NCBI GenBank assembly: GCA_902779765.1
Contig: CACZCQ010000007.1
Location: forward strand, 114,138-178,137
DNA: 64,000 nt
Reading direction: 5' to 3'
DNA from: an uncultured Bacteroidia bacterium
Lineage (GTDB): Bacteria > Bacteroidota > Bacteroidia > Bacteroidales > UBA932
Shown: positions 15,557 through 28,710 of the stretch, in pieces
How the letters are laid out: the number at the start of each line of letters is the position of its first letter
Position numbering within the stretch: position 1 is the stretch's first letter
The notes under the pieces: generated by a model
What the model was told of the DNA's origin: nothing
The model's input: only the letters and a program-made list of their open reading frames with translations
The model's database searches: none
Position numbers and translations under genes: made by a program

Positions 15557-17503
15557 ATGGCCGATAAATTAATCTCAAAGATTCCTGACGGACCTTTGGC
15601 TGAAAAATGGACCAAACGTAAGTCGGAACTTCGTCTTGTCAATCCGAACAACAGGAGAAAACTCGAGATTATAGTTGTCGGAACGGGCCTTGGTGGCGCG
15701 TCCGCAGCTGCTTCTCTCGGAGAGCTTGGCTACAATGTCAAAGTCTTCTGTATCAGCGATTCGCCCCGTAGGGCCCACTCAATTGCAGCTCAGGGAGGTA
15801 TCAACGCTGCCAAGAACTATCAGAACGACAATGATGCCGTGTATCGTCTTTTCTATGATACCATCAAGGGAGGCGACTACCGCAGCCGTGAAGCCAATGT
15901 ATATCGTCTGGCGGAAGTCAGTGCAGCTATTATCGACCAGTGTGTCGCACAGGGAGTTCCTTTTGCCCGTGAATACGGCGGATATCTTGCCAACCGTTCC
16001 TTCGGAGGTGTACAGGTAAGCCGTACTTTCTATGCCCGCGGACAAACCGGACAGCAGCTTCTTCTCGGAGCATATGCAGCCCTTAACCGTCAGATCGCTG
16101 CCGGAACCGTGACGAGCTATCCCCGTCACGAGATGCTCGACCTTGTCATCGTCAACGGTCAGGCCAAGGGTATCATCGCCCGCAACCTTGTGACCGGCAA
16201 GCTTGAAAGGTTCGGTGCCCACGCCGTCGTCATCGCCACCGGAGGTTATGGAAATACCTATTTCCTTTCCACCAACGCTATGAACAGCAACGGTTCAGCC
16301 GCCTGGCAGTGCTACAAGAAGGGAGCATATTTCGCAAATCCCTGCTTCGCCCAGATCCATCCTACATGTATTCCGGTCCACGGAGAGCAGCAGTGCAAGC
16401 TTACCCTTATGTCAGAGTCACTCCGTAACGACGGCCGCATCTGGGTACCCAAGAAGATGGAGGACGTGATCAAACTTCGCAAGAAAGAGAAGAAACCTTC
16501 ACAGATTCCTGAAGAGGATCGTGACTACTATCTCGAGCGTCGTTATCCTGCTTTCGGAAACCTTGTTCCCCGTGACGTGGCTTCCAGGGCAGCTAAGGAA
16601 AGGTGCGATGCCGGCTACGGTGTAAATGAAACCGGTCTTGCAGTATTCCTCGATTTCGCTGATGCCATCAAAAGGCTCGGTCACCAGAGGGTTCAGGAGC
16701 GCTATGGCAACCTCTTCGACATGTATTACAAGATCAACAATGTCAGCCCTTGGGAAGAGCCTATGATGATATATCCCGCCATCCACTACACCATGGGAGG
16801 TATCTGGGTAGACTACGATCTCCAGACCACGATTCCCGGCCTGTACGCGATCGGTGAGGCCAACTTCTCCGACCACGGCGGAAACCGTCTCGGCGCTTCG
16901 GCCCTCATGCAGGGTTTGGCCGACGGTTACTTCGTACTTCCCGTTACCATTGCCGACTATCTCTCCAATAAGTTCGCAGAGCCCAAGACCGACATCAACG
17001 ATCCGGCTTTCGACGAGGCTGAGAAGGCAGTCCAGGCCAGGATTGACAGACTCTTCTCCATCAAGGGAAAGCGTACCGTCGATTCCCTCCACAAGAAACT
17101 TGGAAACATAATGTGGGACTATGTGGGAATGGCCCGAAACGAAGCCGGACTGAAGAAAGCCATCGAAGAGATAAGGGAACTCAAGAAAGAATTCTACGAG
17201 GATGTCTGCGTTCCCGGAGAGCAGAACCAGTTCAACCAGGAACTTGAGAAAGCCCTCAGGCTCGAAGACTTCTTCGAGATTGGCGAGCTCATGGCACGCG
17301 ACGCCCTTAACAGGAAAGAATCCTGCGGTGGTCATTTCCGTGAGGAAAGCCAGACCGAGGAAGGAGAGGCCAAGAGGGACGACGCCAACTACATGTATGT
17401 CGCCGCCTGGGAGTACAAGGGAGAGGACAAGGAACCCGAACTCCACAAGGAGCCGCTCAAGTACGAGTTTATCGAAGTCAAAACCAGAAACTACAAAGAA
17501 TAA
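15557..17503 (+). CDS. sdhA: Fumarate reductase/succinate dehydrogenase flavoprotein subunit
   Basis: [11 protein letters not shown] motif, [44 protein letters not shown]. Confidence 0.96.
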
Positions 17504-17509
17504 CCGGAT

Positions 17510-18289
17510 ATGGATTTCAATCTTAAGATATGGCGTCAGAAGAACGCCAGTGAAAAGGGTCATTTCGAGACCTATCACATCTCAGGTATTGAAGAGGACG
17601 CATCGTTCCTCGAGATGCTTGACATCCTGAACGAGCAGCTCATCCGTGAAGGCAATGATCCTGTAGCAGTTGAAAGGGGTTGCCAGAGCAGCGGTCCAGT
17701 TTCTTTCGACCACGACTGCCGCGAAGGAATCTGCGGAGCATGCTCCCTCTATATCGACGGCCGCGCCCATGGTCCGGACGACCATGTGACTACCTGTCAG
17801 CTTTTCATGCGTCACTTCAAGAACGGTGCTACCATTACGGTCGAACCTTTCAGGAGTCCTGCATTCCCTATCATCAAGGACCTCGTGGTGGATCGCAGTG
17901 CATTTGACAAGATCCTACAGGCCGGCGGATTCATTTCCGTCCGTACCGGAGCGGCCCAGGACGGTAACGCCATCCTTATTTCCCACGAGAATGCTGAGAA
18001 GAGCATGGATGCAGCAGCCTGTGTCGGTTGCGGAGCTTGCGTTGCCACCTGCAAGAACGGATCGGCAATGCTGTTCGTCGCAGCCCGTGTGTCATCCCTT
18101 GCCCTCCTTCCCCAGGGTCGTCCCGAGGCAGCCAGAAGGGCCAAGAATATGGTAGCAAAGATGGAGGAACTCGGATTCGGAGGCTGCACCAACACCCGCG
18201 CCTGCGAAATGGAATGCCCTAAGGGTATATCGATCGAGCACATCGCCCGTCTCAACCGTGAGTTCCTCAAGGCAAAGTTCAGGGAGTAG
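17510..18289 (+). CDS. sdhB: Fumarate reductase/succinate dehydrogenase iron-sulfur subunit, with an apparent 12-aa insertion
   Basis: [34 protein letters not shown] clusters. Confidence 0.95.
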
Positions 18290-18296
18290 GATTATT
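18233..18296 (+). repeat. Left 64-bp direct repeat (3' end of sdhB; attL-like)
   Basis: ATCGAGCACATCGCCCGTCTCAACCGTGAGTTCCTCAAGGCAAAGTTCAGGGAGTAGGATTATT; 60/64 identical to 24320-24383. Confidence 0.95.
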
Positions 18297-19968
18297 CGAC
18301 AACCTCAAAGGTAAATTCATAATGGATTGCCGTGCCGTCGTCAGCAAGACCTTCTGCGACGGCACGGAATTTTCCTGTATACCCAGGAGTATGGAGGATA
18401 AGTCTTTTATTCTCTCCTGTAGCAAGTCGTAGGACAGGATTCCAATAGAGTAGTTGCCTTACATCTTCGACATCTTCCGGGGGCCTTTCTCCATAATATG
18501 CGACCGGATATGAGACTCCTTTGAAATCCACAACCTTTACACTCTCAGGAAAAGGAAGGGTCGTAACATAATTCTTCTTCGTGATGAAATTGACTATTCC
18601 GGAGAAGGAAACCTTTCCGCATGCAATAGCTTGTGTATATACGTCAATATCCTCAATAAGCATAGCGTCAAAATCCAACAGCAAGTCGAGGTCGCTAATC
18701 ACCACCCCGTCCATCATAACAAGAAGATTCTCAACACTTGTCTTATAGTAATCCGTTGCGTCAGTGGCTACCATTACCAACTTTTGTTTTCCCTTTTCGC
18801 GACGCAGGCTCACATATGGAATGATTTCTACCAGGACCTCACGTACCGAAGGAAACCTGACAAAGTTGTCCAAGTGATAATGCTTGCAAGTAGCGGTTTC
18901 AAGCAGCAGGTCTTCACGATGTCTCAACAGGGAAGTCAACGTATCCAACCTCATTGTATTGCTGCTTCTCAAAGCCGCTTTACGGGTGGAAAGGTCTTTT
19001 TGGATTATCCTGTTCATTTGCAGTTGCGGCAACTTTCCTGCTCCGGCCCCGATGAAAGGACTTTCTATATCGATCGACCCCTTTTCCAAATCGACATTTG
19101 AAACCTCACATACGATTTCCCTGTCTCCATAGATATTATTGGTATAGAAGCTGACGTTGTCATTATCCGTGACTCCTATGTACAAGTTGGACGGAGCTCC
19201 TGCCGAGGATAAGGTAGCTACCACCTTATTATTATTTTCCATTATATTCCCTTTGATCCTGGCAGATATTATCTCTCCATCGTAGTCTATTTGGCGGACT
19301 CCGGTAAATTCTGGTTTAGAAGAAGATAATGAATTCAGGAAAACTTCCATTGAGTTATCCTGATGTGCCGGAATGATATCATCTTCATGATAAACCGAGA
19401 ACGATAAATCAGCGCCAGCACCGTTGTTCTCCATGAATATTGTGTAGTCTGATCCTTTACGGACACGTACTGTGGAGTTGAAAAGTATTTTGCCGCAGTT
19501 ATCAGCATCTTCTCTTCTCAAAGACATGTATTCATCTTCATCGACTATCTCCACTCCATCCTTGACTTTGGCCACGGAAATGGTATTGAAAATAGTGAGA
19601 ATCCGCGATCCTAAAATCCATGGTGTACCTGACTCATTGGCGTTGCTGGAGGTGTAGGCAATCAAGCGGTATACTCCGGTGGGAGTAGAAACAGGAATCA
19701 GGAAAGATCCGGCTCCCCTTCCACCCAGCAATCCTATTTTTGACTCAGCAGCAGTACCCTCAGAGGATACCAACTCGAGATATGATACGGCACAGGCATT
19801 AGAAGGATTACCCTGAAGGTCAAGACAAAACAAGGAACATAAAACCACATCCCCGGCAACATAAACCTCCCTGTCCGTAGATATGAATACACGTTCTACC
19901 GGATTATTCTCGGCTAGTAGGGAAATAGAAAACGTCGCCGCCAATATAACTGTATAAAATGCCTTCAT
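18292..19968 (-). CDS. Exported hypothetical protein with MG2-like N-terminus
   Basis: Signal peptide; ERVFISTDREVYVAGD resembles the MG2 FxxTDKxxYxPGE motif; C-terminal LLYWNP motif. Stop codon lies inside the left repeat. Confidence 0.6.
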   Translation of the reverse strand: MKAFYTVILAATFSISLLAENNPVERVFISTDREVYVAGDVVLCSLFCLDLQGNPSNACAVSYLELVSSEGTAAESKIGLLGGRGAGSFLIPVSTPTGVYRLIAYTSSNANESGTPWILGSRILTIFNTISVAKVKDGVEIVDEDEYMSLRREDADNCGKILFNSTVRVRKGSDYTIFMENNGAGADLSFSVYHEDDIIPAHQDNSMEVFLNSLSSSKPEFTGVRQIDYDGEIISARIKGNIMENNNKVVATLSSAGAPSNLYIGVTDNDNVSFYTNNIYGDREIVCEVSNVDLEKGSIDIESPFIGAGAGKLPQLQMNRIIQKDLSTRKAALRSSNTMRLDTLTSLLRHREDLLLETATCKHYHLDNFVRFPSVREVLVEIIPYVSLRREKGKQKLVMVATDATDYYKTSVENLLVMMDGVVISDLDLLLDFDAMLIEDIDVYTQAIACGKVSFSGIVNFITKKNYVTTLPFPESVKVVDFKGVSYPVAYYGERPPEDVEDVRQLLYWNPVLRLATGENKRLILHTPGYTGKFRAVAEGLADDGTAIHYEFTFEVVE

Positions 19969-22900
19969 CAGAAAGATAAGTTAAGGTTGATAAATGGAAC
20001 AGGAACGGCAAAAACAGAGAGCAGATGACCTTTGGGAGTTGCCCTGAAACCAGTGTCCTGGATACCCGAATCAAAGAAAACCGAATAAGGATTCTTACGT
20101 CCCGTAATATTGTACACCCCTATGTTGATGGTAGTATGCATTCTCGCGACAAGGGAATGTCCAGGGTCTATGTTCACGGCAACGTCCATCCGGAAATAAT
20201 CCGGAATGCGATAGAAATTACGCTCAGAGTATGCCATCCTCCAGACACCATCATAAAGATAAGAACCATAAGGCACGGTTACCGGCCGCCCGGTGGAGTA
20301 GTCAACATTGACAGAAAGACTGTAACGTCTGGTAAAAGCATAATTACCAACCAATTTAGCCTCATGTGGCTTGTCGTAAGGTGCATTGTACCAATTGCCG
20401 TGAGCTATCGTCTCATAACCACGGTCCTGCATCTCCTTGTATTTGGCCCTGGAATATGAATAGGACAGCCATCCAGTAAGCTTTCCGTTAGTTTTCCTGG
20501 CCATCAACTCAATTCCATAAGAGCGAAGGAATACAGGAGCCAGATCCTGATGAATCTTGTCGTTCATGGACAGTGTAGCTCCAGGCTTGTAGTCAAGGTG
20601 GTTATCTGCTTCCTTATAATACGCCTCTGCAGATATTTCAATCCCGGTCGCGAGATGTGTCCAATAAGCACCGCCGGCTCCTTGCCAACCGGTGGTTGGT
20701 TTGATTTTGTCTGAGGATAGTCTCCAGGTATCCATCGGAGATATAGATGAAGTATTGGATATCAAATGGATATTCTGCCTCATAGTGTTAAGCCCACCCT
20801 TGATTGAGAAATTGTCAGCCAAGGAATATTTACCAGACAGACGGAATTCCGGTCCGTAATAATAAGTATTGGATTCTAAGCCATAGAAACCTGTCATCCT
20901 TATACCTCCTTCCAACGAAAACTTGTCGGAAATGTTCCAGGTATCGGATACGAATACCGCCGGTTCCAGACCGTATTCCCTCTTCAATGTATCAGGAATG
21001 ACATTGGAGACAGCTGCATAAGGCCTCATGATTCCAGGGTCCAAGGCATAACCCAAAAGGTGTACTCCGTAATCTATTTTGTGCGACGTCCCGACCGGAC
21101 GGACCCTGTTGGCTTTGATAAACACCTGTCTTATGTATGTACTGAGATCATATGATCCCTGATCCCAGCCATACACAGCAACCATGTTGTTGTACTGGTC
21201 GTATCCGGTGCTGATATCCAGCGACCCGCCTTCTGTATCCTTATGCTTGAATAGCAATGAAGCGTTGTAGCTGGTGTAATTGAATGTTGTGTCACCGCCA
21301 AAAATGAATTTATCCTTGGCATAATAACCGAAAGCCTGGAGGGTATTGTTCTGGTTGAAGCGGTGTGTTATTCCAAAGTTTGCATCCATGAAGTTTGCAG
21401 AACCTCCTGCATAGTCGCTGTTCTGGGGAAGCAGGCCGAGCATCCAATCAGAGTATGAAATGCGTGCTCCTGCCGCTATCGAAGTCTTTCCTCTTTTCAA
21501 AGGACCTTCGAGATGCAGACGGCTTGTCATAGGGCCTATTCCGGCAGATCCTTTCCATCGCAGGAAATCTCCTTCCCTGGAGCGTACATTAAGGACCGAA
21601 GACACCCGGCCCCCATATTCCACCGGGATTGAACTCTTGTAGAGTTCCACATCACTTATTAAATCAGGGTTGAAAGCCGATAGGATCCCAAACATATGTG
21701 TAGGATAGTATATCGTACTTCCATTGAACAAGATAAGATTCTGGTCGGCAGAACCTCCACGGACATTGAATCCGGAAGAGGCTTCCCCGGAACTCTTAAC
21801 TCCGGGAAGAGTCAGGATTGCTTTGAGCACATCCCCTTCTCCAAAGGGCGTTGGGATCTTGTTGAGAGTTTTTACACCAAGCCTTTCTATTCCCAGGGTT
21901 GTGGTGCGGTGGTTTGAGATGTTTTCTGAGGATATGAAAGATTCTTTAAGCATGGTTACTTTCTCTGCCATCATAACATTGAAATAGCCATCTGAAAGCA
22001 GGTTTATCCGGAAAGACAACGGTTCTTTGGCTTCGGCACTGAAATTAAGCACATTCTGACCCTGCGGGAGTTGGATTCTGTAGCGCCCCTTGGAATCTGA
22101 CCGAACGTATGTTGATGTACTGTCGTCGTAAATAACCACTCCGGCAAGAGGTTCATCAGACTCATATTCGATGATAATACCTTTGATTGTTCTCTTCCCT
22201 GGCCTGGAATGGCTTGAAGTGCCAATCGAATATACTTTATTCTTGTAGGATGCGGTAACGGATTCTTCATAAATGACAGACACGGTGTCTTCCTTCTCTA
22301 ACTCAAAATAACCAGTCGGAAGACCTGTTCCTGTTCCGGGAAGGTTGCCAGTTAACACAGGACCTTTAGTAGCCTTCTCGGATGCCGGGTGCCAGGAAAC
22401 AGCCAGTTCGCCCAATGTTGGTTCGCCGGCAGGTTGTTTCAGTCTTTTCTTCAAGCCCTTCTTGCTGATTTTATGTATTTTATTCCCATCAAGAACATAA
22501 AAGGACTCAAGGATCTTGAAATATGAAGATACGGATACGTCGTATTTTGGATCATGGTAACCGATTGGTTTGCCGTTGTGGTTATTTCCGTCGGAATACA
22601 ACAGTTTCCTCACTTTTCGAAGCAACGGGGTTTTGCCATCACGGATAACTTCAAAAATACCATTTGGGGCACCTGGATAGCCCAAGTACCGTAAATTAAT
22701 AAACCTCTGTTCCTCCATGGTGAACCACGCAACCTGGTCGGTGAATACAGCGATAGGGGTAGACTGTTCAGTTATACAGACGAGAAGTTCGTTGCGATAA
22801 GCATCAAAATTGAGGAATATCCCATCATAACGTTTCCCGTTATAGAACACATTTCCTTTGTAAAAACCGTTTCTGGACCAAAAATAAGTTCCGTTGAATT

Positions 22901-23060
22901 TGAAAGGATATGTCTTTGGCAGAGGCCCCCTGAACAAGGAAGCCTCTCCATCTGCGACCTCAAGATTTACAAAGCTTTGTGCATTCGCACCAAGGCATAG
23001 AATCAAGGCCATGTTGACAAGCAGGGCCTTGATGTGACTTTTATTCGTGAACATTACCAA
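19968..23060 (-). CDS. TonB-dependent receptor with carboxypeptidase-like domain and extra N-terminal domain
   Basis: Plug motifs GEGDVLKAILTLPGV, GFNVRGGSADQN; barrel end YRIPDYFRMD, GVYNITGRKN; C-terminal F. Confidence 0.88.
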   Translation of the reverse strand: MVMFTNKSHIKALLVNMALILCLGANAQSFVNLEVADGEASLFRGPLPKTYPFKFNGTYFWSRNGFYKGNVFYNGKRYDGIFLNFDAYRNELLVCITEQSTPIAVFTDQVAWFTMEEQRFINLRYLGYPGAPNGIFEVIRDGKTPLLRKVRKLLYSDGNNHNGKPIGYHDPKYDVSVSSYFKILESFYVLDGNKIHKISKKGLKKRLKQPAGEPTLGELAVSWHPASEKATKGPVLTGNLPGTGTGLPTGYFELEKEDTVSVIYEESVTASYKNKVYSIGTSSHSRPGKRTIKGIIIEYESDEPLAGVVIYDDSTSTYVRSDSKGRYRIQLPQGQNVLNFSAEAKEPLSFRINLLSDGYFNVMMAEKVTMLKESFISSENISNHRTTTLGIERLGVKTLNKIPTPFGEGDVLKAILTLPGVKSSGEASSGFNVRGGSADQNLILFNGSTIYYPTHMFGILSAFNPDLISDVELYKSSIPVEYGGRVSSVLNVRSREGDFLRWKGSAGIGPMTSRLHLEGPLKRGKTSIAAGARISYSDWMLGLLPQNSDYAGGSANFMDANFGITHRFNQNNTLQAFGYYAKDKFIFGGDTTFNYTSYNASLLFKHKDTEGGSLDISTGYDQYNNMVAVYGWDQGSYDLSTYIRQVFIKANRVRPVGTSHKIDYGVHLLGYALDPGIMRPYAAVSNVIPDTLKREYGLEPAVFVSDTWNISDKFSLEGGIRMTGFYGLESNTYYYGPEFRLSGKYSLADNFSIKGGLNTMRQNIHLISNTSSISPMDTWRLSSDKIKPTTGWQGAGGAYWTHLATGIEISAEAYYKEADNHLDYKPGATLSMNDKIHQDLAPVFLRSYGIELMARKTNGKLTGWLSYSYSRAKYKEMQDRGYETIAHGNWYNAPYDKPHEAKLVGNYAFTRRYSLSVNVDYSTGRPVTVPYGSYLYDGVWRMAYSERNFYRIPDYFRMDVAVNIDPGHSLVARMHTTINIGVYNITGRKNPYSVFFDSGIQDTGFRATPKGHLLSVFAVPVPFINLNLSF

Positions 23061-24193
23061 AAATCGGGTTTTTCTTTAGTACCTCCTGCCGCGATGCAGT
23101 CGCATAAATGCATAGGAGCCCAATACATCCCTTTAATTATAGTTCCATAATTACCTTTTGGCAAGGCCATTGTATCAATAGGATGACCGTCAATCTCCGG
23201 TTTTCCCCAAGGATACCGTGGATTGACAACAAGACCTGTCGGATCGAAGACTTCAATAAGATATCTGGAATCCAGGAACGCTCTCAAGGGAGAAGATACC
23301 CTACTGGCTGTCACATATCCGGCAACCATCCTTGCCGGATCAGAATCACAGTAGATGTTACAAGGAACCTCGCCTGGATTCGGACTGAAAAGGCTTTGGT
23401 CTCCTTCGGAAATTTTCTTAAGGTTCTTAAGGAACAAATAAGATTGTTCAGACAGCGTCATCGCCTTCACTTCTATAGAATATTTTTTATGATTACGTTG
23501 ATCTGTCCTTGGAAAAGACTGCAGAGGGTAGTGAATCTTTCCGTCGTTATAGAGATCTGTGTAATCCAGTAAAACCATCGGATGAGACTTGTTTCTCCAG
23601 CACCAATAATTCTCATATTCCACATCCCTGAATATGTAATGTCCATACAGAATAGAAGGATTATAAAGTGGTACATAATAAAATAAACTCTTATACTGTG
23701 CATGAAACTCCCATGTCTCATCAAAATAAACACCTAAATAACCCGTCGCGTCTTTTCCCGTGTCAAATGTCACATCGACATTCACATCATCATAGTCAGT
23801 CGAGAATGACACTTCCTCTATCTCAGGAGGTTCTAACGGTTTCAGCCAATCGCTCACATAGGTTATACCATTCACTTCGGCTTTTATTCGGTATTTCAAG
23901 GAAGGATCGGCATTGTCCATTGGGATTTCCTGATACATGCCAGGAATCGAAGAGGACGATTCATATAAACCGCCCTTTTCATCCTCCACGACCGCGGTCC
24001 CTAGCACTGCGACAAAATCAGTATCCTCAGAAGTGTAAACCTTTGAGAACTTGATAGTTGATGTTCCTCCGACTGCAATATTTCCTTCAATCACCACAAC
24101 CATATCATCAATGCCATCCAAAGATACTTGATATGGATAGACGCAGGATGTCAGGGACACCAATAATGTTATGATCGTAAAAGTTTTTTTCAC
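23054..24193 (-). CDS. DUF4249-family lipoprotein
   Basis: Lipobox LTS-C followed by V-Y-P-Y, VVIEGNI, SLFSPNPGEVPCNI...AGYVTAS. GTG start. Confidence 0.8.
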   Translation of the reverse strand: MKKTFTIITLLVSLTSCVYPYQVSLDGIDDMVVVIEGNIAVGGTSTIKFSKVYTSEDTDFVAVLGTAVVEDEKGGLYESSSSIPGMYQEIPMDNADPSLKYRIKAEVNGITYVSDWLKPLEPPEIEEVSFSTDYDDVNVDVTFDTGKDATGYLGVYFDETWEFHAQYKSLFYYVPLYNPSILYGHYIFRDVEYENYWCWRNKSHPMVLLDYTDLYNDGKIHYPLQSFPRTDQRNHKKYSIEVKAMTLSEQSYLFLKNLKKISEGDQSLFSPNPGEVPCNIYCDSDPARMVAGYVTASRVSSPLRAFLDSRYLIEVFDPTGLVVNPRYPWGKPEIDGHPIDTMALPKGNYGTIIKGMYWAPMHLCDCIAAGGTKEKPDFW

Positions 24194-24319
24194 AATTATA
24201 TAGAACTAAAGTCGTTATTCGAGGACATAATTATAGATCCTACAGTTAACGCCGCCATAAATGTGGTTAGCACTCCAATTAATAACATCTGTATTTAACC
24301 AGAGATTGTCATATTGACC

Positions 24320-24383
24320 ATCGAGCACATCGCCCGTCTCAACCGTGATTTCCTCAAGGCTAAGTTCAGGGATTAGGTTTATT
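24320..24383 (+). repeat. Right 64-bp direct repeat (orphan sdhB 3' end; attR-like)
   Basis: Reads [18 protein letters not shown] versus [18 protein letters not shown] in sdhB; no upstream homology to sdhB. Confidence 0.95.
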
Positions 24384-25567
24384 TACCACAAGAAATTATT
24401 AAAGGGATATCTTCCCGCGTGGATCTCCGCAACCATCTTGTAGATGTCGTTGCGGAGTTTCTCGATATTGGTCTTGTTGATGGCTGACATGAATATGCAC
24501 GGGGTCTTTTCCTGGGCAATCCAGGAATTCTTCAACTCTTCCAGGGTGAGGTTTTCCTTGCCCTTCGGAGTTAGTGAGAATTCATCATATTCCTCATATT
24601 CATAAGCGTCTATCTTGTTGAAAATGACGTAGACAGGCTTGTTGGCAGCACCGATGTCCCGAAGGGTTTTCTCGACAACCTCCATCTGTTCTTCGAAGCC
24701 GGGATGGGAAATGTCAACCACGTGGAGCAGGATGTCCGCTTCGCGTACTTCATCAAGGGTGCTCTTGAAAGCCTCTACGAGTTGGGTGGGCAGCTTCCTT
24801 ATGAATCCGACGGTGTCGCTGAGAAGGAAGGGAACGTTCTCGATGACCACCTTCCTTACGGTAGTATCAAGGGTTGCGAACAACTTGTTTTCAGCGAAGA
24901 CGTCAGATTTGGCCAACAGGTTCATGATGGTGCTCTTGCCTACATTCGTGTAGCCGACAAGGGAAAGCCTTACCATCGATCCCCTGTTACTGCGCTGCGT
25001 GGCCATCTGCCGGTCAACCTTCTTAAGCTGTTCCTTCAGCTTGGAAATCCTTTCCTTGACGATACGGCGGTCGATCTCAATCTGGGTTTCACCCATACCT
25101 CCGCGGGTTCCCATACCGCCCCTCTGCCTCTCGAGGTGGGTCCACATGCCTGCGAGCCGAGGGAGCATATAGTTGTACCTGGCCAGTTCCACCTGCATCT
25201 TGGCGTACGAAGTCTTGGCCCTTTGTGCGAATATTTCAAGTATGAGACTTGTCCTGTCAATTACGGCTCCGCATTTTATGACCTTCTCGATATTCCTCTG
25301 CTGCATACCGGTCAGCTCGTCGTCGAAGATTACATATGCGATTTCGTTTTCCTCGCAGTAATCGGCGATTTCCTGAAGTTTTCCACTCCTGATGTAGGTT
25401 GCCTTCTCTGGCTTGTCGAGGCGCTGGACGAATTTACGGTCTCCTGTCGCTCCGGCCGTCTCGGCCAGGAATTCCAGTTCGTCAAGGTATTCCATTACCT
25501 TGCGCTCGTCATCATTCTGCCGTATTATTCCGACAAATACGGCTTTTTCTATCTTTTCTTCTGTCAT
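24383..25567 (-). CDS. hflX: GTPase HflX
   Basis: GETQIEIDRR, VGYTNVGKST, LFATLDTT, DTVGFI, FNKID. Confidence 0.97.
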   Translation of the reverse strand: MTEEKIEKAVFVGIIRQNDDERKVMEYLDELEFLAETAGATGDRKFVQRLDKPEKATYIRSGKLQEIADYCEENEIAYVIFDDELTGMQQRNIEKVIKCGAVIDRTSLILEIFAQRAKTSYAKMQVELARYNYMLPRLAGMWTHLERQRGGMGTRGGMGETQIEIDRRIVKERISKLKEQLKKVDRQMATQRSNRGSMVRLSLVGYTNVGKSTIMNLLAKSDVFAENKLFATLDTTVRKVVIENVPFLLSDTVGFIRKLPTQLVEAFKSTLDEVREADILLHVVDISHPGFEEQMEVVEKTLRDIGAANKPVYVIFNKIDAYEYEEYDEFSLTPKGKENLTLEELKNSWIAQEKTPCIFMSAINKTNIEKLRNDIYKMVAEIHAGRYPFNNFLW

Positions 25568-25581
25568 ACTTTATCCTTATC

Positions 25582-25612
25582 AAAAAAGGCCATCCGGTTG
25601 GGGACGGCCTTT
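25582..25612 (-). terminator. Intrinsic terminator after tonB
   Basis: On the minus strand AAAGGCCGTCC-CCAACC-GGATGGCC followed by a T-tract. Confidence 0.7.
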
Positions 25613-25630
25613 GAATTCTTCTTTACCGCA

Positions 25631-26320
25631 TTAGCGGAGCTGGAAGATCACAGGGAAGGTATAAGTAACCTTGACCGGCCGGTCACGCTGCTTTCCGGGC
25701 TTCCACTTCGGAGAGCTCTGAACAACGCGGACAGCCTCCTTGTCGAGCGAAGAGTCGACGCCACGAAGAACCTTTACGTTGGTCACGGAACCGTCCTTCT
25801 CCACCGTGAACTGAAGGGTAACACGGCCCTGAACACCATTTTCCTTAGCGATTTCAGGATAGACAAGTTTGGAATTGACCCACTTCGAGAACTCGTTGGC
25901 ATCTCCGCCGTTGAATGACGGCTTCTCCTCTACCAACTGGAAAGGAATAGCCTCTTCTTCCACGACCTCTTCCTTGACTTCTTCAACGTAGTCCATGATT
26001 TCGACACCAAGGTTGGCGTCATCCTCAAGGCTCATGAAGTTGTCTTCAACCTTGATGTCATCCTCGACGATGTCGATCTGGTCTGACAGGACAGGAATCT
26101 GGGGTGCCTCGGGCGGCGGCGGAGGTGTCTCCTGGGTAATAGGAACCATATCCTCTACTTCCACGACCTCAGCTTCGTTGCCGAATACTGCAACAGTCTT
26201 CTCCTTTGTTCCATAGGAGAAAGCTCCCCAGACAAGAAGAAGTGCAGCGGCGAGTCCGATCTCTGTAAAGAGCAGTCTCCTGTTCTCAAGATTGGCTTTT
26301 TCGGTTTTCTTTACTTCCAT
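25631..26320 (-). CDS. tonB: Energy transducer TonB
   Basis: N-terminal TM helix, Pro-rich linker, YPEIA...GVQGRV...GVDSSLDKEAVRVV C-domain. Start MEVKK. Confidence 0.92.
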   Translation of the reverse strand: MEVKKTEKANLENRRLLFTEIGLAAALLLVWGAFSYGTKEKTVAVFGNEAEVVEVEDMVPITQETPPPPPEAPQIPVLSDQIDIVEDDIKVEDNFMSLEDDANLGVEIMDYVEEVKEEVVEEEAIPFQLVEEKPSFNGGDANEFSKWVNSKLVYPEIAKENGVQGRVTLQFTVEKDGSVTNVKVLRGVDSSLDKEAVRVVQSSPKWKPGKQRDRPVKVTYTFPVIFQLR

Positions 26321-26351
26321 ATTCAGTGAATTTAAATCCAATACAGGCTCT

Positions 26352-26409
26352 CAAAGTTATAAATAATAATTTTCATTTCAAATTTTTTGGATTAATAGTT
26401 GTAGATTTG
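26352..26409. promoter_or_regulatory. Divergent -7 elements for tonB and ybeY-mnmG
   Basis: CAAAGTTA at 26352 (TAACTTTG on the minus strand) and TAGATTTG at 26402. Confidence 0.65.
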
Positions 26410-26424
26410 TGGAAACTTTTGGTC

Positions 26425-26844
26425 ATGATCAGGTATTATTGCGAGGATGTAAAGTTTGTTTTCAAGAACAAACAGGCGAACAACCGTTGGCTGAAAATGG
26501 TCGCTGGCAGCGAAATCAAAATCATCGGAGACATTAACATAATATTCTGTTCCGACAACTACATCCTCGATGTGAACATGCGTTACCTTCAGCATGACTA
26601 TTTCACTGACATCATCACTTTCGACTATTGTGAAGGGAACCGACTGTCCGGGGACCTTTTCATAAGTATCGACACGGTCCGAGAGAATGCCTTGGAATAT
26701 GGGGCCGAGTTTGATGAGGAACTCCACAGGGTGATAGTCCACGGACTCCTCCATCTTATCGGTTATGACGACCATACTCCGGAAGAGGAAAAGCAGATCC
26801 ATCAGAAGGAAGACTATTACCTCGGCCTGCGGAATTTTGTTTAG
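26425..26844 (+). CDS. ybeY: rRNA maturation RNase YbeY
   Basis: TDIITF, GDLFIS, HGLLHLIGYDDH. Confidence 0.95.
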   Translation: MIRYYCEDVKFVFKNKQANNRWLKMVAGSEIKIIGDINIIFCSDNYILDVNMRYLQHDYFTDIITFDYCEGNRLSGDLFISIDTVRENALEYGAEFDEELHRVIVHGLLHLIGYDDHTPEEEKQIHQKEDYYLGLRNFV

Positions 26845-26847
26845 AAG

Positions 26848-28710
26848 ATGCTTGGAACTTACGACATAATTGTCGTCGGCGGCGGACATGCCGGCTGCGA
26901 GGCCGCAGTTGCGGCTGCAAACCTGGGATCATCCGTCCTATTGCTGAATGCAGACCTGCTGAGTTTTGCCAGAATGTCCTGCAATCCGGCTGTTGGTGGA
27001 ATAGCTAAAGGTCAGATAGTCAGGGAAATAGATGCTTTGGGCGGTATGATGGGACTGGTTACCGACGCCTGCACTTTGCAGTTTCGGATGCTCAACAGGT
27101 CCAAAGGACCGGCAATGTGGAGCCCCAGGGCGCAGTGTGACAAACAGGCTTTTTCCCGACGCTGGAGAAATATTCTCGAAACTCATTGTAAATTAGATAT
27201 TTACGCGGATTTCGCAACATCTTTCCTCTTTGAGAATTCAAAAATCTGCGGCGTCCGCACGACTACTGGGGCAATTTTCAAGTCTCAAGCGGTTATTTTG
27301 ACCGCCGGAACCTTCCTCGGCGGCAAGCTTTTCATCGGCAGGACGGTTTTTGAAGGAGGAAGGATCGGCGAGCTTCCATCACATGGTCTGACTGAGCAAC
27401 TGGTCAGTCTGGGACTCCGTACCGGAAGGATGAAAACAGGAACACCTCCAAGGATCGACATTTCTTCGGTTGATACCTCAAGACTTCTTCCGCAGCTTGG
27501 AGATCCAGAACCGGAAAGGTTTTCTTATCTGGATATCCCGTCTTCCGTTCAGGGAGATAATCCCCAGATGCCTTGCTTCATCCTTCACACCAATGAGAAA
27601 GTCCACGATATCCTTCGTTCCGGATTCAAGGACTCCCCTCTCTTGAACGGACTGATCACAGGACGTGGCCCAAGGTATTGTCCGAGTATCGAAGACAAAC
27701 TCCGCGTCTTCCCTGACAACGATTCTCACCAGCTTTTCCTGGAACCGGAAGGCCGTGACATCAATGAATATTATCTCCAGGGCTTCTCTTCCTCGCTTTC
27801 ATTGGATACCCAGATCGAGGCGCTCCATTCGATCGAAGGCCTGGAGAATGCCAAGATATTCAAGCCGGCGTATGCAGTCGAGTATGATTATTTCGATCCC
27901 ACCCAGCTAAAGGATACACTTGAACTCAAGGATATCGATAATCTGTACTTCGCCGGCCAGGTGAACGGCACAACCGGTTATGAAGAAGCCGCAGCACAGG
28001 GGCTTATGGCCGGTATCAACGCAGCCTTGAAAGTACAAGAAAAAGATCCTTTCATCCTAAAACGCGACGAATCTTATATAGGAGTCCTCATTGATGACCT
28101 TGTTACCAAGGGAGTAGATGAACCCTATAGGATGTTCACTTCTAGGGCGGAATATCGAATCCTGCTTCGTCAGGATAACGCCGACTTCAGGCTGACCGAA
28201 AAGGCCTACAAAATAGGCCTCGCTTCAGAAAAGCGTTACACAAATATGCTTTTGAAGCGCTCTCAAGCGGCAGAATTAAAAGAAAGGTGTTACAACACCA
28301 AGATGCGGGCCGATGTCGTCAACGACTATTTGGAGTCCTGTGGTTCTACAGTTATTACTGACTCCAAGAAGGTATCCGAGCTTGCTTCACGGCCGGAGAC
28401 CAGTCTATCTGAATTGTTAAAAATTGTTCCACGTGGAACAATTTATCCTAAGGAGGTTGTCGATTCGGTCGAGATCGAGATAAAATATAAGGGCTACATT
28501 GAGCGAGAAAAACTCGCCGCAGAAAAGTTGTCCAGGCTTGAGAATCTGATTATACCTGACGACTTTGATTTTGACAGGGTTTCCGGCCTTTCGATAGAAT
28601 GCCGCCAGAAACTCAAGTCTTACAAGCCCAGAACCATCGCCCAGGCCTCCAGGATATCCGGCGTCTCCCCTTCCGACATCTCCATCCTTCTCGTCTATTT
28701 CGGACGATAG
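26848..28710 (+). CDS. mnmG: tRNA modification enzyme MnmG (GidA)
   Basis: [58 protein letters not shown]. Confidence 0.97.
28425..28440. other. parS site inside mnmG
   Basis: TGTTCCACGTGGAACA, a perfect parS-type palindrome extended to 24 bp (28421-28444). Confidence 0.85.

Follow-up and report, generated by a model that had tools for sequence, protein, structure and literature searches.

A transporter cassette of 6 kb between sdhB and hflX of a rumen Bacteroidales genome: a probable microhomology-mediated insertion with duplication of a 64-bp target

The stretch of DNA analysed here, hereafter the window, spans 64,000 nucleotides of an uncultured Bacteroidia bacterium (Bacteroidales, UBA932; GenBank assembly GCA_902779765.1, contig CACZCQ010000007.1, positions 114,138 to 178,137 of the forward strand). 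Between the core genes sdhB and hflX it contains a cassette of three genes, predicted to encode an outer-membrane uptake unit, which is flanked by two direct copies of the sdhB 3' end. This arrangement raises the question whether the cassette is a mobile element that uses the end of sdhB as attachment (att) site, a possibility put forward in the initial annotation of this DNA, or whether it arrived by another route and the repeats were left behind by its arrival. The comparisons reported below make it probable that the cassette was acquired horizontally and inserted once, by a microhomology-mediated illegitimate event that duplicated 64 bp of the target, and that it spread afterwards by homologous recombination.

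The two repeats lie at 18233-18296 and 24320-24383, 6,087 nt apart from start to start, and are identical at 60 of 64 positions, the longest run without mismatch being 28 nt. Two of the four differences are GAG/GAT changes (E/D), on either side of a synonymous GCA/GCT change, and the fourth is one base past the stop codon. Since the 64-nt sequence is present in exactly two copies in the 2.48-Mb genome (E = 1.9e-27 and 3.1e-22), a chance origin of the repeat is ruled out. The left copy (plus strand) consists of the functional end of sdhB, its stop codon and 7 nt. The gene itself, which encodes the iron-sulfur subunit (sdhB/frdB, 17510-18289, plus strand; Pfam Fer2_3 and Fer4_8), is intact, with a product that is 78-95% identical over its full length to those of same-genus relatives; its 3'-terminal 57 nt (18233-18289), ending with the TAG codon at 18287-18289, fall in the repeat. 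The right copy (24320-24383, plus strand) is a non-functional fossil of the original sdhB end joined to hflX: it starts abruptly, with no sdhB homology upstream of 24320, and it reaches as far as the first nucleotide of the hflX stop codon (24383-24385). The inserted segment between the copies (18297-24319, minus strand) is 6,023 nt long and contains three tightly packed minus-strand genes in the order DUF4249, TBDT and c558, which code for a DUF4249 lipoprotein, a TonB-dependent transporter (TBDT) and a protein of 558 amino acids, respectively. The stop codon of c558 (TAA, 18292-18294) is inside the left repeat, in host-derived sequence. The coordinates of the repeats, their four differences, the abrupt right copy abutting the hflX stop codon and the position of the last cargo stop codon all agree with the initial annotation. 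The lower GC content that it reported for the cargo is also real (44.2%, as compared to 53.4% for sdhAB and 53.2% for the genome), but the contrast had been overstated (37-40% vs. 50-65%). The islet is indeed free of integrases, as no match to PF00589 (tyrosine recombinases) or PF00239 (serine recombinases) was found across the 205-kb contig. A transposon or insertion sequence was considered and rejected: none of the three cargo genes encodes a transposase, terminal inverted repeats of the cargo were looked for and not found, and the duplication measures 64 bp, as compared to the 2-14 bp of such elements.

Removal of one repeat together with the interval had been predicted to restore a compact junction between sdhB and hflX, and sites of this kind do exist. 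In 11 same-genus species the two genes are convergent neighbours, with spacers of 8-406 nt and a single sdhB end. Conspecific empty contigs were located by exact look-up of the HflX protein: four of them, from four samples (L093, L094, L096 and L099; L and G numbers denote the loci and genomes compared, G000 being the genome under study), have a 9-nt spacer between sdhB and hflX, encode an HflX protein identical to that of the window and share 96-98% nucleotide identity with it over 4-9 kb of the flanks. When they were compared to the window by megablast, a single 53-nt stretch aligned to both 18233-18285 and 24320-24372. One stretch that matches both copies demonstrates an insertion with target duplication, and this insertion is polymorphic within the species, with filled and empty alleles. 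The full arrangement or its junctions were recovered in at least 20 contigs from ENA, JGI, NCBI and Logan, which derive from various samples and assemblers. The recurrence of the junctions in this number of independent assemblies excludes a mis-join at the right repeat, which had been considered as a possible artefact.

Outside the sdhB locus, the nearest relatives of the cargo (89% amino acid identity for the DUF4249 protein and 84% for the 558-aa protein) are found in another species (L077, L078 and L079), where DUF4249, TBDT and c558 lie in this order between queH and a macB-type ABC efflux operon. A second lineage (L082), with a DUF4249 protein 79% identical, also has the cassette beside queH. 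The BLASTN alignment of L077 to G000 pairs L077 9861-15901 with window 24324-18296 at 90.6% nucleotide identity; it covers exactly the interval between the repeats and ends at both repeat boundaries. No sdhB-like sequence is present beside the cassette at this donor-type queH-macB locus. The flanks of L077 match queH and the macB operon on contig C7 of G000 at 70-77%, and there queH and macB are adjacent (about 140 nt apart), that is, the queH-macB site is empty in the genome under study. The rate of synonymous substitution (dS) between the cassette and its donor-type counterpart is 0.20-0.46, and stretches of 449 and 272 nt match exactly, whereas the synonymous divergence of the flanking macB and queH genes is saturated (proportion of synonymous differences, pS, 0.68-0.79). 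The cassette therefore crossed between species long after they had split. This contrast in dS and the GC content of 44% against 53% both point to a foreign origin, and acquisition from a related donor, as already contemplated in the initial annotation, in this case a rumen Bacteroidales lineage, is the best reading. Among the 301 species of the genus no other carries the cassette type of the window, and the closest species are without this type altogether.

A three-way comparison of the window, the donor-type locus and sdhB allowed us to read both joints. The right joint is CATATTGACC-ATCGA-GCACATCGCC in the window, and the corresponding sequences are CATATTGACC-ATCGA-ATCCCCAATT at the donor-type locus and GGTATATCG-ATCGA-GCACATCGCC in sdhB; the microhomology ATCGA (24320-24324, plus strand) is common to the latter two. 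At the left joint, the homology with the donor type breaks off at a distance of 2 nt from the c558 stop codon, no more than 1-2 nt being shared, and the 558-aa protein ends with FEVVE in the window as compared to FEVVDSKE in the donor type. The tail that follows the stop codon in the left copy, TAGGATTATT, matches the host spacer kept in the right copy, TAGGTTTATT, and no donor sequence. Because the donor-type locus has no sdhB sequence, both 64-nt copies must represent the host target and not an att site borne by the element. The proposal that the element supplied a replacement 3' end to sdhB does not hold for this reason, and also because the single end of the empty allele matches both copies.

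The left, functional copy occurs as four haplotypes among the strains, and haplotypes 3 and 4 have GCT and GAT-TAG in common with the right copy. The right copy is invariant in all filled contigs but one. This sharing of alleles and the near invariance of the right copy identify the latter as a relic of the sdhB end as it was when the cassette inserted. The cassette is itself a mosaic: its identity to L077 swings between 78 and 100% in windows of 300 nt, the conspecific filled alleles that we compared (L072 and L063) show the same mosaic, and c558 is the most variable cassette gene among strains. Recombination of the cassette with alleles from other genomes is evidently still going on, and the mosaicism is consistent with diversifying selection, or with frequent recombination, acting on a surface-exposed system. 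Two P0003 contigs (L074 and L075) share the same cassette allele and a common open reading frame (ORF) of 70 amino acids downstream of c558. They diverge right after the stop codon of this ORF, one continuing into a macB-type ATPase gene and the other into an unrelated ORF, and the TBDT gene is apparently frameshifted in both.

What we observe is therefore a single foreign insertion with arbitrary ends, a microhomology joint and a 64-bp target duplication, with no recombinase and no terminal repeats; the few bases shared at the joints and the single target of the empty allele, which corresponds to both copies, are the marks of an illegitimate insertion. In the mechanism that we propose, the 6.02-kb cassette would have entered the gap of a few nucleotides between the convergent sdhB and hflX genes in one illegitimate event, joined through the five shared bases at the right end and the one or two at most at the left, with no involvement of a site-specific recombinase. 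As the two joints are separated by 64 nt on the target, the terminal 64 nt of the sdhB region would have been doubled, so that the left copy would keep sdhB whole and the right one would remain on hflX as a dead fossil. The stop codons of the two genes are separated by 6-9 nt, and therefore only an event that duplicates the sdhB end leaves both genes intact; selection would then retain products of this kind. Two physical routes may be considered. Replication may have switched template onto the incoming DNA and returned 64 nt behind its point of departure, as in microhomology-mediated break-induced replication (MMBIR), or a linear fragment may have been joined illegitimately at both ends across a staggered break. 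The filled allele would later have coexisted with empty alleles and spread between strain backgrounds by ordinary homologous recombination, and by the same process cassette segments would have been exchanged with the cassettes of other species. A spread of this type would explain the varied haplotypes of the left copy and flanks around a near-invariant right part of the cassette and fossil.

Template switching of the MMBIR type, or by fork stalling and template switching (FoSTeS), joins DNA at microhomologies. Microhomology-mediated integration of foreign DNA has been described in Acinetobacter baylyi, by double illegitimate recombination and by its short-patch form (SPDIR) (bioRxiv 10.1101/2023.11.22.568220). 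The insertion at sdhB resembles these cases in its joints of a few bases, in the lack of a recombinase and of defined ends, and in the arbitrary target positions that lead to deletion or duplication. It differs from them in that it is a natural, functional operon of 6 kb present at appreciable frequency in a wild gut population, in that the process is known here from its product alone, and in that two convergent core genes owe their preservation to the duplication. The insertion is a clean instance, found in nature, of a process already known, and not a new kind of mobile element. Its interest lies in the fact that three states of a recombinase-independent acquisition are known, with both joints readable to the base, which is rare in nature. 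It illustrates how a near-zero gap between core genes can receive a functional operon and neither gene be damaged, at the cost of a 64-bp duplication that mimics att sites, and it calls for caution in island searches that take direct repeats at the 3' end of a gene as a sign of site-specific integration. It is, in addition, a documented case of intense recombination between species inside a surface transporter cassette.

Several points weigh against this reconstruction. Two pattern scans of JGI metagenome contigs for an empty allele with the junction of the window (TAG GTTTAT TTA) gave no match, and the empty alleles that were found carry another junction allele, TAA AACCTGTTT TTA. One contig (L100, ENA ERZ28612984, 1,386 nt) combines a right joint of the filled type with a fossil and an hflX end as in the empty alleles (GAC TAA AACCTGTTT), which points to either a crossover within the repeat or a chimeric assembly. 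The microhomology at the left joint is almost nil. L077, at 90.6% identity, is a proxy and not the true donor, and, given the mosaic structure of the cassette, it is conceivable that the latter moved within the genome, from the queH site of this species, where it would later have been lost. As to the choice between template switching and double end-joining, we infer the physical route from the end product alone. Finally, the choice of the site may not be purely accidental, considering the cassettes found after hflX in another subclade (see below).

A different view is that a circle with the cassette and a captured 64-nt sdhB fragment was integrated by RecA in a Campbell-type event. The circle would have originated in a filled strain by the looping-out of the DNA between the repeats, which would also account for a secondary spread into empty strains. 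Such an event predicts exactly two flanking copies with alleles sorted around the crossover, and L100, with its empty-type fossil, would fit integration into an empty-type chromosome. However, L100 is a single contig of 1.4 kb, and the first event would be left unexplained, the sdhB piece of the circle requiring an earlier filled site. Moreover, 28-53 nt of identity make a poor substrate for RecA as compared to the kilobases of flank homology available for allelic replacement. We consequently regard this origin as unlikely.

Homology-facilitated illegitimate recombination, in which a donor cassette already located beside sdhB or hflX would provide a homology anchor and a single illegitimate joint would suffice, appears quite unlikely. 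A subclade of the genus does have a conserved tonB-hflX-TBDT-DUF4249-c558 cluster, RUG487 has the order sdhB-TBDT-DUF4249-c558, and the left-copy haplotypes vary among strains. These sdhB- or hflX-linked cassettes, however, are just 35-60% identical at the amino acid level and have another gene order, whereas the relatives with 90% identity are at queH-macB, and their homology stops exactly at both repeat boundaries, so that no anchor is visible for the homology-anchored acquisition previously suggested. In addition, the tail after the stop codon in the left copy corresponds to the host fossil and not to the donor.

Genomic islands, integrative and conjugative elements and integrative and mobilizable elements (IMEs) integrate at the 3' ends of genes and leave att repeats, as Bacteroides NBU1 and NBU2 do at tRNA 3' ends, and derivatives of the cis-mobilizable element (CIME) type are integrase-less. 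The cassette looks like one of these, with its position at the 3' end of a conserved gene, its flanking direct repeats, its intact target and the absence of a recombinase inside; the filled/empty polymorphism within the species and nine tyrosine recombinases encoded on other contigs of the same genome would also suit an integrase-less CIME- or IME-like cassette that uses the 64-nt sdhB end as att site with a recombinase supplied in trans. Nevertheless, we consider this very unlikely. Neither a cognate recombinase nor a parent element came to light, the nearest cassettes are at queH-macB with no sdhB-like attP beside them, and the repeat arose from the host, whose target was duplicated. The ends of the element are not conserved (2 nt from the c558 stop codon on one side, the 5-nt microhomology on the other, and no terminal repeats), and the repeat is a 64-nt sequence with 94% identity, interrupted at least every 28 nt, instead of a short identical core. 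A family of islets directed to sdhB, as conceived in the initial annotation, is not supported either: the cassette type occurs in no other of the 301 species, and the other inserts between sdhB and hflX carry different cargo and have no sdhB duplication. That the cassette is ancestral at the locus and was lost in relatives, or that the contig is mis-assembled, is extremely improbable, since, in spite of the related cassettes beside hflX in another subclade, there is a target-duplication signature against conspecific empty alleles, the closest species lack the cassette type, the cassette dS is far below the species-level dS, and both junctions were reproduced in the independent assemblies.

 Hotspots, or regions of genome plasticity, occur between conserved core genes, and the sdhB-hflX interval is an insertion hotspot in this large rumen Bacteroidales genus: it ranges from 8 nt to about 22 kb, and in G021, G008, G006, G010, G007, G134, G048 and G249 it holds 1.2-22 kb of unrelated cargo, with no duplication of sdhB in any of the eight genomes. 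Relatives thus have both the empty sites and the alternative cargo that had been proposed as worth searching for. As in other hotspots, the size of the interval varies widely and the cargo is unrelated between species; unlike in the usual hotspots, one insertion is resolved here to single nucleotides, and its donor-type, empty and filled alleles are all available. In six of the loci (L107 of G134, L109 of G048, L108 of G249, L048 of G008, L050 of G006 and L049 of G021) the cargo includes an AAA-ATPase with lipoproteins, ABC-type genes, a 1065-aa TolB/peptidase-like protein with a TIM-barrel isomerase, and a phosphoesterase with a large glycoside-hydrolase-like protein. The inserts of G007 and G010 contain SusC/SusD loci and a gene for a small serine recombinase (L045 12350-12952 and L047 2192-2518, respectively); these recombinases are resolvase/invertase-like, with the motif YIRVSTxxQ, and could be invertases that control the adjoining SusC/SusD loci. 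A 28-nt repeat around the 16-kb insert of G007 was examined as a candidate att site and rejected, being a dispersed palindrome similar to repetitive extragenic palindromic (REP) sequences. This palindrome, AGATGGCCGATCAGGTCGGCCATGACGA, often followed by the hairpin GTCATTCCCGGCTTGACCGGGAATC, is found at positions 2150, 18201, 29803, 30296 and 31190 of the joined G007 region (L045/L046) and represents a repeat family of that genome. The spacers of the closest empty species (L004, L005 and L006, from G015, G004 and G018), 216-406 nt long, have in common a conserved long hairpin, AAAAGTCTCTACTCGAAATTTTTGTAACGTGAAAAATTTCGAGAGAGACTTTT, which may act as a terminator in both directions or represent a small mobile repeat.

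In the subclade whose HflX protein is 82-85% identical to that of the window, a distant cassette with the order TBDT, DUF4249 and 558-aa protein gene (35-60% amino acid identity) comes straight after tonB and hflX. The cluster is conserved in L101-L106 (G121, G255, G102, G131, G155 and G169) and also on contig C86 of G007, with hflX and the TBDT gene only 13-140 nt apart; G155 has the cassette in inverted orientation. The arrangement suggests that the TBDT unit may be co-transcribed with tonB-hflX. In the window, too, the cassette lies downstream of a tonB-family gene (25631-26341, minus strand) and hflX (24383-25567, minus strand), which encodes a GTPase and forms the right core flank, on the same strand and upstream of the cassette; the left core flank, ahead of sdhB, is sdhA/frdA, the gene of the flavoprotein subunit (15557-17503, plus strand; Pfam FAD_binding_2 and Succ_DH_flav_C). 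It is conceivable, though we hold it to be doubtful, that the landing site was not accidental, and that cassettes with TBDT, DUF4249 and MG2-like proteins have been recruited repeatedly downstream of tonB-hflX in the same orientation, a different subtype having arrived independently here. If so, transporter and energiser may be co-expressed by read-through from tonB-hflX, an effect on which selection could act; or else foreign DNA may be captured at the convergent sdhB/hflX terminus, as a hotspot of fork collapse or template switching.

The first gene of the cassette (23054-24193, minus strand) encodes the DUF4249 lipoprotein (Pfam DUF4249; 379 residues, lipobox LTSC), which may serve as a lid of the transporter at the cell surface. 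It is preceded by 126 nt (24194-24319, minus strand) that were imported with the cassette and are homologous to the upstream region of DUF4249 at the donor-type locus. The transporter gene (19968-23060, minus strand) encodes a non-SusC TBDT of 1030 amino acids with a signal peptide, matches to Pfam Plug and CarbopepD_reg_2, and a divergent barrel. About 290 residues at its N-terminus (residues 1-290) form a conserved extension before the CarboxypepD_reg-like domain, for which no Pfam or NCBIfam match was found. The third gene, c558 (18292-19968, minus strand), encodes a secreted protein with a weak MG2 (macroglobulin-like) domain. DUF4249 lipoproteins have been proposed as surface lids of non-SusC TBDTs in Bacteroides, on the basis of the cofitness of BT2172 and BT2173 (Price et al., bioRxiv 10.1101/2023.03.17.533168). 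The cassette resembles that pair, in that a TBDT with a CarboxypepD_reg-like domain, plug and barrel adjoins a DUF4249 lipoprotein gene on the same strand; it differs in the lid-first order, in the third conserved MG2-like secreted protein of 558 amino acids and in the long N-terminal extension of the TBDT. Most likely, the cassette serves the uptake of a small substrate across the outer membrane. The ratio dN/dS is 0.15-0.20 for all three genes, which are thus under purifying selection and presumably functional.

Other searches added little. NCBIfam gave only sub-threshold TBDT matches for the cargo, a sequence search of the PDB with the cargo returned nothing usable, and the AlphaFold2 model of the 558-aa protein has a mean predicted local distance difference test (pLDDT) score of 56. 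Rfam detected no riboswitch or other RNA over 17000-27000, the folding of the cassette leader is no better than that of shuffled sequence (z = -1.3), and the stretch from hflX to the cassette showed nothing that resembles a terminator. A scan for sigma-70 promoters scored no better than shuffles, and the sigma-70 model does not apply to Bacteroidota. A scan of genome contigs with the 558-aa protein yielded two distant loci only, with 46-47% identity. A second, paralogous cassette is present in the genome under study (G000:C21:4427-10304, L051). It has the canonical order TBDT, DUF4249 and 558-aa protein gene, its products are 64, 39 and 61% identical to those of the window genes, and its GC content, 53.7%, is typical of the genome, as compared to 44% for the cassette at sdhB.

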